Part shown: piece after piece, positions 542 through 46,033 of the stretch
Numbering within the stretch: the stretch's first letter is position 1
Layout of the letters: every line of letters begins with the position of its first letter
NCBI RefSeq assembly: GCF_003334765.1
Contig: NZ_QOWT01000013.1
DNA from: Escherichia coli
GTDB lineage: Bacteria; Pseudomonadota; Gammaproteobacteria; Enterobacterales; Enterobacteriaceae
Strand: one strand, 5' to 3'
DNA length: 64,000 nucleotides
Notes under the pieces: generated by a model
What the model saw: only the letters and a program-made list of their open reading frames with translations
The model's database searches: none
Told to the model about the DNA's origin: nothing
Made by a program: the position numbers and the translations under genes

Positions 542-647
542 TACCGCTTTAACGCGTCGAAATTAAAGTTAAATGATACCCGGTTGCGATATTCGTACCG
601 GGCTTTAGAGATTTGCATTTTTTTAATTAACCTTTCAAGGATTAAAG

Positions 648-1292
648 GTGCGCCCTCTTATTTTATCGATTTTCGCACTATTTCTTGCGGGATGTACGCA
701 CAGCCAGCAAAGTATGGTCGATACATTTCGCGCCAGCCTTTTCGATAATCAGGATATCACCGTAGCGGATCAGCAGATCCAGGCGTTGCCTTATTCCACT
801 ATGTATTTACGCCTTAATGAAGGGCAACGAATCTTTGTGGTACTGGGATATATAGAACAAGAACAAAGCAAATGGTTATCCCAGGATAACGCCATGCTGG
901 TTACCCACAATGGACGTCTTTTAAAAACCGTCAAACTTAATAATAATCTGCTGGAAGTGACAAATTCCGGGCAGGACCCTCTGCGTAACGCGCTGGCAAT
1001 AAAAGATGGCAGCCGCTGGACGCGCGATATTCTCTGGAGTGAAGACAACCATTTTCGCTCTGCGACCCTGAGTTCTACTTTTTCCTTTGCTGGATTAGAG
1101 ACGCTGAATATTGCGGGTCGCAATGTGCTGTGTAATGTCTGGCAGGAAGAGGTGACTTCCACGCGGCCAGAAAAACAGTGGCAAAACACATTCTGGGTCG
1201 ATTCGGCTACTGGCCAGGTTCGTCAAAGTCGGCAAATGTTAGGCGCAGGGGTTATTCCCGTAGAAATGACGTTTCTTAAACCCGCACCATGA
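648..1292 (+). CDS. gfcB: GfcB (YmcC) lipoprotein
   Basis: ORF track 648..1292, 214 aa, GTG start; signal peptide ending in LAGC lipobox; recognised as GfcB. Confidence 0.85.
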   Translation: MRPLILSIFALFLAGCTHSQQSMVDTFRASLFDNQDITVADQQIQALPYSTMYLRLNEGQRIFVVLGYIEQEQSKWLSQDNAMLVTHNGRLLKTVKLNNNLLEVTNSGQDPLRNALAIKDGSRWTRDILWSEDNHFRSATLSSTFSFAGLETLNIAGRNVLCNVWQEEVTSTRPEKQWQNTFWVDSATGQVRQSRQMLGAGVIPVEMTFLKPAP

Positions 1293-2035
1293 ATAAATTA
1301 CAGTCGTATTTCATTGCCAGCGTACTTTACGTAATGACACCCCATGCCTTTGCGCAAGGAACGGTGACTATTTATCTGCCTGGCGAACAACAGACACTTT
1401 CCGTTGGCCCCGTGGAAAATGTTGTCCAGTTGGTGACACAACCGCAACTGCGCGATCGCCTCTGGTGGCCTGGTGCCTTGCTGACCGACTCTGCGGCGAA
1501 AGCTAAAGCGCTTAAAGACTACCAACATGTCATGGCACAGCTTGCTTCCTGGGAAGCAGAAGCTGACGACGATGTGGCGGCAACGATTAAATCCGTGCGC
1601 CAGCAGTTACTCAATCTCAATATCACTGGTCGCTTACCGGTCAAACTGGACCCTGATTTTGTACGAGTGGATGAGAACAGCAATCCCCCGTTGGTCGGGG
1701 ACTATACGCTCTATACCGTACAGCGTCCGGTGACTATTACTCTGCTGGGTGCGGTTTCTGGGGCCGGGCAATTGCCCTGGCAGGCAGGCCGTAGCGTTAC
1801 CGATTATCTGCAAGATCACCCCCGCCTTGCAGGCGCGGACAAGAATAACGTTATGGTGATTACGCCTGAGGGTGAGACTGTCGTCGCCCCTGTTGCCCTG
1901 TGGAATAAAAGACATGTGGAACCACCGCCTGGCAGCCAGCTTTGGTTGGGCTTTTCTGCGCATGTACTGCCCGAAAAATATGCTGATTTAAATGACCAGA
2001 TTGTGTCTGTTTTAACGCAACGTGTTCCTGACTGA
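1289..2035 (+). CDS. gfcC: GfcC (YmcB) periplasmic capsule-assembly protein
   Basis: ORF track 1289..2035, 248 aa; ATG overlaps gfcB stop (ATGA); cleavable signal peptide; recognised as GfcC. Confidence 0.85.
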
Positions 2036-44201: not shown

Positions 44202-45212
44202 TTAGATATGGGTAACGATTTCTTTAATCAGCGGCGGACCTTTAAAAATAAAACCAGAATAAATTTGCACCAGTGAGGCACCCGCAGCAATCTTTTCACG
44301 CGCAGCGATAACCGAGTCGATGCCGCCAACACCGATGATCGGTAAGCGACCGTTTAATTCCAGTGACAAGCGGCGAATAATTTCGGTGCTTTTTAACTGA
44401 AGCGGACGACCACTTAAGCCACCGGTTTGATCGCAATTTTTCATTCCCTGAACAAGAGAACGATCGAGTGTGGTATTGGTTGCAATAACGCCATCAATAT
44501 TATGGCGAACTAAACTATCGGCAACCTGGATCAATTCTTCTTCAGAAAGATCCGGCGCGATCTTCACTGCGATCGGCACATATTTATGGTGCATCGCTTG
44601 CAAATCATTTTGCTTATTTTTAATCGCGGTTAAGAGATCATCCAGCGCTTCACCATATTGCAGCGTGCGTAATCCTGGGGTATTCGGCGATGAAATATTG
44701 ATGGCGATATATCCCGCATAGGCATAGATTTTTTCCATACAAATCAGATAGTCATCTTTGCCCTGCTCCACTGGCGTATCTTTATTTTTGCCGATGTTAA
44801 TACCCAGGACGCCGTCATAATGGGCCTTTTTTACGTTCTCTACGAGGTTATCAACGCCAAGATTATTAAAGCCCATACGGTTGATCAAACCTTCGGCATC
44901 TACCAGACGAAAGAGACGCGGCTTGTCATTACCTGGCTGTGGACGTGGCGTGACGGTACCGATCTCGATCGATCCAAATCCCATCGCGCCTAACGCGTCA
45001 ATGCACTCCCCGTCTTTATCAAGACCGGCTGCCAGACCAAGCGGATTTTTAAACGTCAGGCCCATGCAGTTAACAGGTTTCGCAGGCACTTTCTGCCGCA
45101 CCAGTGCTTCAAACGGCGTTCCTGTAATACGGCGTAATTGCTGAAAAGTAAACTCATGAGCGCGCTCTGGATCGAGCTGGAAAAGGGCTTTACGAACGAA
45201 GGGGTAGTACAT
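44202..45212 (-). CDS. pyrD: PyrD dihydroorotate dehydrogenase (quinone)
   Basis: ORF-track frame 44202..45239 trimmed to Met-10 (336 aa) with AGGAG upstream; [21 protein letters not shown] recognised. Confidence 0.95.
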
Positions 45213-45298
45213 GAACTCTCCTGGATTCCCGGTGTGCAAACCGGGGGCGTATTATGTGCGAGTTCGGACCAAAAGGGAATTGACCTGCGGCAAAAAAA

Positions 45299-45312
45299 AC
45301 GCAAACGTTTTC
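45299..45312 (-). promoter_or_regulatory. PurR-box-like operator upstream of pyrD
   Basis: Minus strand reads GAAAACGTTTGCGT (AAACGTTT core of PurR consensus); lies upstream of a CATAAT -10 (45256-45251) and C-run start region. Confidence 0.55.
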
Positions 45313-45322
45313 CGAACCTGTT

Positions 45323-46033
45323 TCAGGGCAGATTTTGCTCCTTCTTTGCACTCAACCCGCCGTAATCATTTATCGCCCGCCAGGCGACATGACACGGTGC
45401 GATTGCCTGACACCAGCTTGTCTGACGCTGGCTTTTAGGCGGCACAACTCCCACATTACTTAACGCTTTACCATTTACACTCACCTGAATCAGGTTAATG
45501 TAATAAGGCGTTGGGTTAGTGAGTTGTACACCCTGCGAATTCCGTGTCCAGCGTAATTGTTGATAAGCTTCCAGCGGGTCGCCCGGCAAACCTTCGGGTC
45601 GCCAGAACAGTTTAAATACCGAGCGCATCGCCACTTTTACGCTCTGATTTTCAACTTTGCCGGATGGCACGCTGGCAATGCTTAACTCAAATAGCGTTTC
45701 GCGATCCACAGGCAAGATGTCGCTTTCCGTTCTCAGCAAGCGCAACGTGCCTGTCGTACCGGGCTTCAGGAGAATAAGTGGCGGAGCGGCCAGTAATGGT
45801 GCTGGCACTGTCGACGCTTCCCCCCCGGCCCAACGCGTTGGGCGGTTGATTTTACTGTTAATAAGCCAGGATTCCTGACTGGTATTAGTCAGTAAAATAG
45901 ATATCGATTCTCTGTCTGCCGGAAAGATAAATCGCGTTCCGCCGACCACCACTCCTGCCTGCAATTCACCCGCCACCAGCAGCGATAAAACGGCGAAAAT
46001 CAAGAGCGCCAATCTGTTCCACGTATTAGTCAT
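45323..46033 (-). CDS. ycbF: YcbF periplasmic pilus chaperone (PapD-like)
   Basis: ORF-track frame 45323..46060 trimmed to Met-10 (236 aa); signal peptide; chaperone-usher family chaperone. Confidence 0.8.
   Translation of the reverse strand: MTNTWNRLALLIFAVLSLLVAGELQAGVVVGGTRFIFPADRESISILLTNTSQESWLINSKINRPTRWAGGEASTVPAPLLAAPPLILLKPGTTGTLRLLRTESDILPVDRETLFELSIASVPSGKVENQSVKVAMRSVFKLFWRPEGLPGDPLEAYQQLRWTRNSQGVQLTNPTPYYINLIQVSVNGKALSNVGVVPPKSQRQTSWCQAIAPCHVAWRAINDYGGLSAKKEQNLP

Follow-up and report, generated by a model that had tools for sequence, protein, structure and literature searches.

The closest described counterparts of the region considered here are the pyrC and pyrD genes of E. coli and Salmonella, at which the CTP/GTP ratio selects between transcription starts at a C and at a G, and whose C-started messages carry a 5′ hairpin that prevents ribosome binding (PMC6524683; PMC7818426). 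Those two accounts, one a review and the other an engineering study, trace the switching to Sørensen et al. 1993, Frick et al. 1990, Wilson et al. 1992 and Liu & Turnbough 1994, and it was in Salmonella that start-site switching and hairpin-dependent control were demonstrated (Sørensen 1993, as cited in PMC6524683). Rfam holds a family for each of the two leaders, namely RF02373 for pyrD (Sørensen et al. 1993) and RF02372 for pyrC of E. coli and Salmonella (Wilson et al. 1992, Liu & Turnbough 1994). A similar logic is found in the pyrimidine genes pyrBI, carAB P1, codBA and upp-uraA, whose control likewise works without a repressor, by way of the nucleotides used at initiation, and which share with pyrD a T3 tract after a G start. 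They differ from it in that pyrD senses CTP/GTP, that its output is translational and not abortive transcription, and that slippage is unreported at pyrD. Two further kinds of site are relevant: the PurR operators (purF, purT, cvpA-purF, carAB P1 and others), which share with pyrD a 16-bp palindromic box with a central CG, and the class II FNR promoters (dmsA, yfiD, focA-pflB, pykA), in which, as in pyrD, a TTGNN-N4-NTCAA site centred about 41.5 bp upstream replaces the -35 box.

We analysed a 64-kb stretch of DNA from E. coli, referred to below as the window, in which the minus strand carries the genes elfG-ycbU-ycbV-ycbF, pyrD and zapC in that order, with ycbF upstream and zapC downstream of pyrD. 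The surroundings of the pyrD control region belong to the E. coli chromosome: a 1-kb segment that includes the leader has 100% identity with many E. coli genomes and finds matches in all 5,426 complete genomes, and pyrD itself is 100% identical to E. coli chromosomes. The whole region is the native E. coli pyrD control region, already described and curated in Rfam. A first-pass annotation, made from the letters of the window, had drawn attention to the span 45213-45312 as a pyrD leader with nucleotide-sensitive start selection. The strings that it named are all present. The upper bound of the span needs correcting, as it clips two bases of a minus-strand PUR box that reaches to 45314. The features are collected in Table 1. 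After the -10 hexamer the leader reads ACGCCCCCGGTTTGCACACCGGGAATCCAGGAGAGTTC (45250-45213, minus strand), followed by the ATG. For comparison we used a set of 81 sequences, consisting of the window and 80 pyrD loci from one scan of species-representative genomes, all of them from Enterobacteriaceae and with PyrD identity of at least 91%. A protein search for distant orthologues returned only E. coli-level sequences.

Table 1. Features of the pyrD control region, given in window coordinates and ordered along the minus strand from ycbF to pyrD.
Feature	Position	Strand	Remarks
ycbF stop codon	45325-45323	-	
Spacer between ycbF stop and PUR box	45322-45315	-	8 nt
PUR box (PurR operator) CGGAAAACGTTTGCGT	45299..45314	-	16 bp; centre about -64.5 from the G45242 start
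T8 tract TTTTTTTT	45292..45299	-	between PUR box and FNR site, about -57 to -50
FNR-like site TTGCCGCAGGTCAA (TTGCC-GCAG-GTCAA)	45280..45293	-	class II position
Match to Rfam RF02373 PyrD_leader	45207..45280	-	full model, 1-74
Hexamer in -35 position, TTCCCT	45274..45279	-	17-bp spacer; poor match to TTGACA
Variable spacer	45273-45257	-	
-10 hexamer CATAAT	45251..45256	-	mapped TSS 9 nt downstream
ACG	45250-45248	-	three bases before the C-run
Start window	45241..45247	-	CCCCC at 45247-45243, then GG at 45242-45241
5′-terminal hairpin CCCGGU-UUGCAC-ACCGGG	45228..45245	-	6-bp stem, 6-nt loop
Linker AAUCC	45223..45227	-	5 nt, single-stranded, hairpin to Shine-Dalgarno (SD); nearly invariant
SD AGGAG	45218..45222	-	5 nt before ATG; invariant in 81 sequences
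Spacer AGUUC	45217-45213	-	SD to start codon
pyrD start codon AUG	45212-45210	-	read from sequence
pyrD CDS	44202..45212	-	336 codons and stop; quinone-dependent (class 2) dihydroorotate dehydrogenase; ORF list agrees with RefSeq annotation

The leader of the window is the RF02373 element, with the same hairpin in the same position and no difference within the leader. The match has a score of 97.9 bits (gathering threshold 47; E = 4e-18, or 4.2e-18 to two figures), its consensus structure consists of exactly the six base pairs of the hairpin, and it reaches 6 nt into the pyrD ORF. The model begins at 45280, so that the FNR site and the PUR box upstream stand outside it. No other Rfam family reaches its threshold at the pyrD leader; STnc240, RmaA and SNORA57 were considered and set aside with scores far under theirs. 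The fold of the 46-48-nt leader is unremarkable in terms of z-scores (-1.3 to -1.6) and the stem is short, so the significance of the hairpin is carried by the Rfam match and by its near-invariance. The same palindrome could be read on the other strand as an intrinsic terminator, which would make the minus-strand leader features coincidental, and a consensus scan does mark a terminator-like structure of 8 pairs at 45226-45247 of the plus strand. However, the tail, CGTATTATGT, has no U-run, no plus-strand gene ends nearby (the plus-strand ORFs are short and antisense to pyrD and ycbF), and it is the minus strand that the Rfam model matches. With neither a U-tail nor a gene to terminate, we rejected this reading and give it practically no chance.

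The palindrome is best considered as the 5′ hairpin of the pyrD leader. The -10 hexamer is as named in the first-pass annotation and has the form NATAAT in all 81 sequences, with ATAAT invariant and the first base C, G or A. The run of Cs said to come immediately after it is also there, but does not follow directly, as the three bases ACG intervene. Positions 1-5 after the -10 vary among genera (ACGCC, CCCCT, AGCGC, ATGCC and others) with the count fixed at five, and are followed in every one of the 81 by an invariant CCCGG, the CCC at positions 6-8 and the GG at positions 9-10. The conserved unit is CCCGG at positions 6-10, rather than the run of five Cs.

A start in this unit has been mapped by others. 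The transcription start map of MG1655 grown in M9-glucose lists one pyrD start, a G at 1,003,961 with 421 reads and a 30-nt UTR (PMC3415461, supplementary file 2). This base is G45242 of the window, at position 9 after the -10, and we predict that it is the “on”, translatable start, as mapped in a medium without pyrimidines. A single invariant start had been named in the first-pass annotation as an observation that would count against start-site selection; the map does give one start, but for one medium and with a cut-off that retains starts from 50% of the top signal upwards (PMC3415461), and this does not amount to a single invariant start. The start data for E. coli pyrD are of a single start in one condition, and the evidence for switching comes from Salmonella. 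Between the -10 and the ATG, both included, the leader of S. enterica subsp. arizonae in our set does not differ from the window, and it belongs to the same species as the Salmonella used for the switching work, though to a different serovar. For C starts of E. coli in rich medium, the supplements of Ettwiller 2016 show no entry at the pyrD coordinates. The architecture had been read as one for nucleotide-sensitive start selection, and the RF02373 match, the literature on pyrC and pyrD switching and the start at G45242 all bear this out.

The bases just after the mapped start suggest a different sensor, in which the T3 tract would support UTP-sensitive reiterative transcription of the carAB P1 and pyrBI kind, as a second or even the main means of detecting nucleotides. 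GGTTTG lies at 45242-45237, right at the mapped start, TTT is kept in 74 of the 81 sequences, and the carAB P1 start studied by Han and Turnbough in 1998 is reportedly GTTTG, resembling the pyrD G start. Against this, TCT replaces TTT in the other 7 taxa with the rest of the leader kept, the T3 bases sit in the hairpin loop, a part that tolerates variation, and control of pyrD has been ascribed to the CTP/GTP ratio with slippage unmentioned (PMC6524683; PMC7818426). We regard such a role for slippage as decidedly unlikely, and keep to the choice between C and G starts as the sensor.

Only a C-started transcript contains the complete 5′ arm of the hairpin, and in the E. coli leader one stem pair is lost for every base taken off the 5′ end: the minimum free energy is -13.6 kcal/mol for a start at 45245, -10.5 at 45244, -7.2 at 45243, -6.4 at 45242 and -4.0 at 45241. 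The E. coli hairpin alone has -10.3 kcal/mol when started from position 6 vs -3.1 from position 9, and the same holds across taxa, with -8.4 to -11.1 kcal/mol from position 6 and -1.1 to -3.2 from position 9. The CCGG...CCGG hairpin had been described as adjoining AGGAG, and this is accurate: its 3′ arm stops 5 nt upstream, leaving the SD unpaired by the stem, where reviews loosely put the hairpin over the SD.

A close parallel is found in pyrC of MG1655, which matches RF02372 PyrC_leader and is laid out in the same way as pyrD. It has a C-C-G-G start window 7-10 nt after the -10, a 5′-terminal GC hairpin that is whole only in C-started RNA and whose free energy falls as the start moves 3′, a hairpin 3′ arm that ends 13-16 nt before the AUG, and a PUR box upstream. 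The two differ in the loop (15 nt in pyrC vs 6 nt in pyrD) and in where the stem ends, for the 3′ arm of pyrC, GCCGGA, overlaps GGAG, whereas in pyrD the SD is 5 nt downstream of the stem. In pyrC about 6-8 kcal/mol is needed to open the GGAG when the RNA begins at the first C of CCGG or further upstream, vs 2-3 for G-started RNA. In pyrD the SD-opening energies of C and G starts are only 0.6-2 kcal/mol apart, inconsistently so, and the gap vanishes with a longer 3′ extent. The accepted model agrees with all the tests made, but inhibition is less direct in pyrD than in pyrC: these small and uneven differences do not demonstrate thermodynamic sequestration of the SD in pyrD, and a steric or standby-site effect is proposed instead.

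In designed 5′ UTRs the single-stranded standby surface sets the translation rate, and hairpins upstream of the SD that leave little surface lower translation, the surface being the distal plus the proximal length minus the hairpin height (PMC3936740). For pyrD this gives roughly 0-2 + 5 - 6, an extrapolation for a 6-bp stem since the rules were derived for hairpins of 9-18 bp. Counted from the AUG, the stem occupies -21 to -16, which is within the 30S footprint or adjoining it and is comparable to the position in pyrC. Because the stem leaves the SD unpaired and the SD-opening energies barely differ, the steric, standby-site mode of inhibition appears to be the more likely one in pyrD. Some of the same observations could be taken to mean that the hairpin mainly stabilises the message, protecting it from RppH and RNase E, so that C-started transcripts would be longer-lived and not silenced: 5′ stem-loops stabilise E. 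coli mRNAs, the hairpin begins at nucleotide 1-2 of the C-started RNA and excludes the SD, and in silico it hardly alters SD accessibility. The sign of such an effect would, however, be opposite to the physiology, as pyrimidine excess favours C starts and yet lowers PyrD, and the hairpin has been described as preventing ribosome binding (PMC6524683; PMC7818426). A primary role in stability is in our judgement highly improbable, and inhibition of translation by the hairpin is the reading that we retain.

Conservation across the family gives a similar picture. From C45245 to the AUG (45245-45210) the 81 sequences are near-invariant, and in the same set only 4.8% of pyrD third-codon positions are invariant. 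The hairpin stem is identical in all 81, so that covariation can lend it no support, while the loop varies both in sequence (UUUGCACA, UCUGCACA, UUUGCAUA) and in length (UUUGCAA, UUUGCUA, UUUGCCA), the CCCGG and CCGGG arms being 7-8 nt apart. A fixed register, a fixed stem and a free loop would be expected if the register of the start window and the formation of the stem were both under selection.

Near-invariance extends beyond the stem, to AAUCC, AGGAGAGUUC and the first 10 codons, and it could be argued from this that the leader is held constant by a trans-acting factor, either CsrA at the two GGA motifs of GGGAAUCCAGGAG, which are 9 nt apart, or a small RNA. We found no evidence for such a factor, PyrD_leader is the one Rfam family above threshold, and the start of a control gene behaves likewise: no part of pyrD is more conserved at synonymous sites than its first 10 codons (rank 1 of 327 windows), but the start of zapC ranks 5 of 171, so much of the signal is a general gene-start effect. 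A trans-acting factor thus strikes us as very unlikely, and selection on the register and stem remains the preferred explanation for the leader proper. For the same reason, a larger RNA element extending into the coding region was considered and downgraded to a general gene-start effect, zapC having the same tendency. A candidate pairing of the SD with CUUUUCC was likewise dropped, as it includes the third position of codon 11, which is variable in half of the taxa.

Upstream of the promoter, the first-pass annotation had noted a PurR-like box, GGAAAACGTTTGCGT, at 45313-45299 on the minus strand. The full 16-bp box departs from the consensus ACGCAAACGTTTTCNT at a single position (15 of 16 matching) and is the sole such site in the window, none of 100 shuffles having produced any. 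All 81 Enterobacteriaceae sequences have a PUR box, with 12-16 of its 16 positions matching. Unlike those of the pur genes, the pyrD box is far upstream of the core promoter and weak in effect (about twofold, as Wilson and Turnbough reportedly found in 1990), resembling in this carAB P1, whose box is at -128.5; the pyrC box, for its part, abuts the -10 and overlaps the -35 region, against about -64 in pyrD. That PurR occupies the site was established by Cho et al. 2011, whose Table 1 gives a ChIP-chip region for pyrD of 1,003,618-1,004,017 with a motif identical to CGGAAAACGTTTGCGT, at 1,003,889-1,003,904, or 102 nt before the ATG (PMC3159470). The distance from PUR box to ATG in the window is the same 102 nt, and the predicted PurR binding is in this way confirmed by a published region that carries the exact motif (PMC3159470). 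Binding at pyrD was seen only with adenine added, and pyrD was counted there among the promoters shown earlier to be directly repressed by PurR; the same experiment recovered pyrD and not pyrC, and its purT box, ACGAAAACGTTTGCGT, differs from that of pyrD in the first two bases only (PMC3159470). The effect of PurR on pyrD has been described as weak, or much smaller than on pur genes (PMC6245113).

Between the PUR box and the -10, a consensus promoter scan of 45000-45600 scores 0 sigma-70-like sites, because a -35 is absent. A conserved FNR site stands in place of the -35 box; the first-pass annotation overlooked it, though it is already published. Of the 14-mers in the spacer, TTGCCGCAGGTCAA is the most FNR-like, with 3 mismatches to TTGAT-N4-ATCAA vs 5 for the runner-up, and its centre is at -41.5 from C45245 or -44.5 from G45242. 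The match by itself is not above chance, as the window holds 329 sites at 3 or fewer mismatches vs 255 expected, and the claim is carried instead by conservation and by ChIP-seq. TTG and GTCAA are invariant in the 81 sequences, and the site belongs to a block that extends to 45272, is more conserved than the spacer, and contains the conserved bases of TTCCCT. Myers 2013 reported an FNR ChIP-seq peak at pyrD in all of their data sets, with one predicted site, and placed pyrD in Category 1, directly activated by FNR; their supplementary sigma-70 peak table gives occupancy values of 1380 and 5493 at pyrD (PMC3688515). The site that Myers et al. located at -38.5 would be this same 14-mer, provided that the older annotated start at 45248 was used. 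Compared with the known class II promoters, the pyrD match is weak (7/10), its distance ranges from -41.5 to -44.5 by the start counted, and the gene is biosynthetic, not respiratory. Reading GGTCAA as a RutR half-site found no support in the literature, and the documented FNR site is preferred. In the T8 tract just upstream, T45297-45295 and T45293-45292 are invariant in the 81 sequences and T45294 has a majority frequency of 0.73; the tract may provide an alpha-CTD or UP-like contact.

The position of the PUR box falls into two classes. Measured from the final T of the -10, its centre is at 53.5-55.5 bp in 31 of the 81 taxa and at 63.5-66.5 bp in the other 50. In the first class it stands about 20 bp upstream of the middle of the FNR site, and in the second about 30 bp. 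These spacings correspond to two and three helical turns and so place both sites on one face of the DNA. The manner in which PurR interferes with an FNR-dependent promoter is one that we infer, and the spacing allows a speculative proposal: the three upstream elements could form one geometric unit, with PurR as an anti-activator that displaces alpha-CTD upstream of FNR, and with UTP-sensitive slippage of GGUUUG transcripts, as at carAB P1, added to it. We consider this combined proposal unlikely. If PurR did act as an anti-activator, the repression of pyrD by purines would be contingent on oxygen and FNR, and if the G-started RNA did slip, pyrD would carry a UTP sensor besides its CTP/GTP sensor.

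Setting that proposal aside, we are confident that control of pyrD has three layers, comprising the FNR-dependent promoter, PurR and the choice of start site. RNA polymerase would use the -10 CATAAT with no usable -35, and FNR at the class II site TTGCCGCAGGTCAA would activate anaerobically. PurR with hypoxanthine or guanine would occupy the PUR box, 20 bp upstream of the FNR-site centre, and modestly lower transcription. The choice of start within CCCGG, at positions 6-10 after the -10, is proposed as the main pyrimidine control. At high CTP/GTP, initiation with CTP at C45245 or C45244 would give a transcript with the full 5′ arm of the hairpin, and at low CTP/GTP, initiation with GTP at G45242 or G45241 would truncate the arm so that no stable hairpin forms. 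Placed at the extreme 5′ end and 5 nt from the SD, the hairpin would leave almost no standby surface for the 30S subunit, and C-started pyrD mRNA would be poorly translated where G-started mRNA is translated well.

The evidence supports the sequence-only reading of this locus as correct, and the biology that it describes is textbook, resting on the genetics of the 1990s and later ChIP. What novelty is left lies only in the way the PurR and FNR sites are phased on the helix and in the speculative layer of UTP slippage. What the comparison adds is a fixed register of the start window, two positions of the PurR box that differ by one helical turn, and a hairpin that lies beside the SD and leaves it uncovered, additions that leave the accepted picture unchanged. 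In that picture pyrD is a classic example of “repression without a repressor”, in which the levels of the initiating NTPs choose the start and hence the translatability of the mRNA, and some 100 bp of DNA bring together purine signals through PurR, oxygen through FNR and pyrimidines through the CTP/GTP ratio.

A PUR box, the PurR operator, precedes pyrD in every one of the 81 Enterobacteriaceae sequences compared, and its positions fall into two classes separated by one turn of the helix. In 31 taxa, among them E. coli, Citrobacter and Salmonella, the centre of the box is about 20 bp upstream of the centre of an FNR-type site; in the other 50, among them Enterobacter, Klebsiella and Kosakonia, it is about 30 bp upstream. 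The FNR-type site is centred at -41.5 relative to C45245, the first C of the CCCGG start window. An FNR ChIP-seq peak has been found at pyrD, which is classed as directly FNR-activated (PMC3688515). This site was missing from the first-pass annotation.

Features of the pyrD upstream region (window coordinates unless a locus is named)
Feature	Position	Strand	Remark
FNR-type site, TTGCCGCAGGTCAA	45280-45293	minus	conserved; stands where a -35 box is expected
PUR box	45299-45314; L002-L081 (other loci), about 1070-1150	minus	
GGUUUG transcript start	45237-45242	minus	
Leader palindrome (terminator-like call)	45226-45247	plus	
First 10-20 pyrD codons	45153-45212	minus	
End of elf/ycb operon and gap to PUR box	45315-45325; L003-L006 (other loci), about 1073-1200	minus	gap of 8 nt
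IS1 insertion in ycbF	L083 (E. coli 23CRST021), 610-1307		ycbF interior, window about 45510-45530

The carAB P1 promoter has an initially transcribed GUUUG, at which UTP-sensitive reiterative transcription occurs. The pyrD transcript from the mapped G start opens with GGUUUG and so resembles it, with the middle T of the corresponding GGTTTG being C in 7 of the 81 taxa. A consensus scan called the leader palindrome terminator-like on the plus strand; since no U-run follows it on that strand and no plus-strand gene ends there, we rejected a terminator at this place and judge the call to be a palindrome artefact.

Third codon positions at the start of pyrD are unusually conserved, with a mean majority frequency of 0.96 compared to 0.68 for the whole gene, ranking first of 327 ten-codon windows. 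As the start of the downstream gene zapC shows a weaker version at the same loci (0.86 compared to 0.65; rank 5 of 171), the conservation is largely a general gene-start effect.

Among the 5,426 complete genomes of E. coli, 4,064 have the junction with ycbF seen in the window; in another 1,353 ssuE lies directly upstream of pyrD, and both the box and the T-tract differ (AAGAAAACGTTTGCTATTTATTGCC). Those Pseudocitrobacter loci in which the end of a ycbF-like gene is present have the K-12-type GCGTTTTTTTTG. In some E. coli strains an IS1 insertion splits ycbF roughly 300 bp before the ATG of pyrD, and the pyrD promoter and leader are intact in these strains. The elf/ycb fimbrial operon ends very close to the PUR box, and no terminator-like site was found on the minus strand, from which we infer that transcription may read through from this operon into pyrD.
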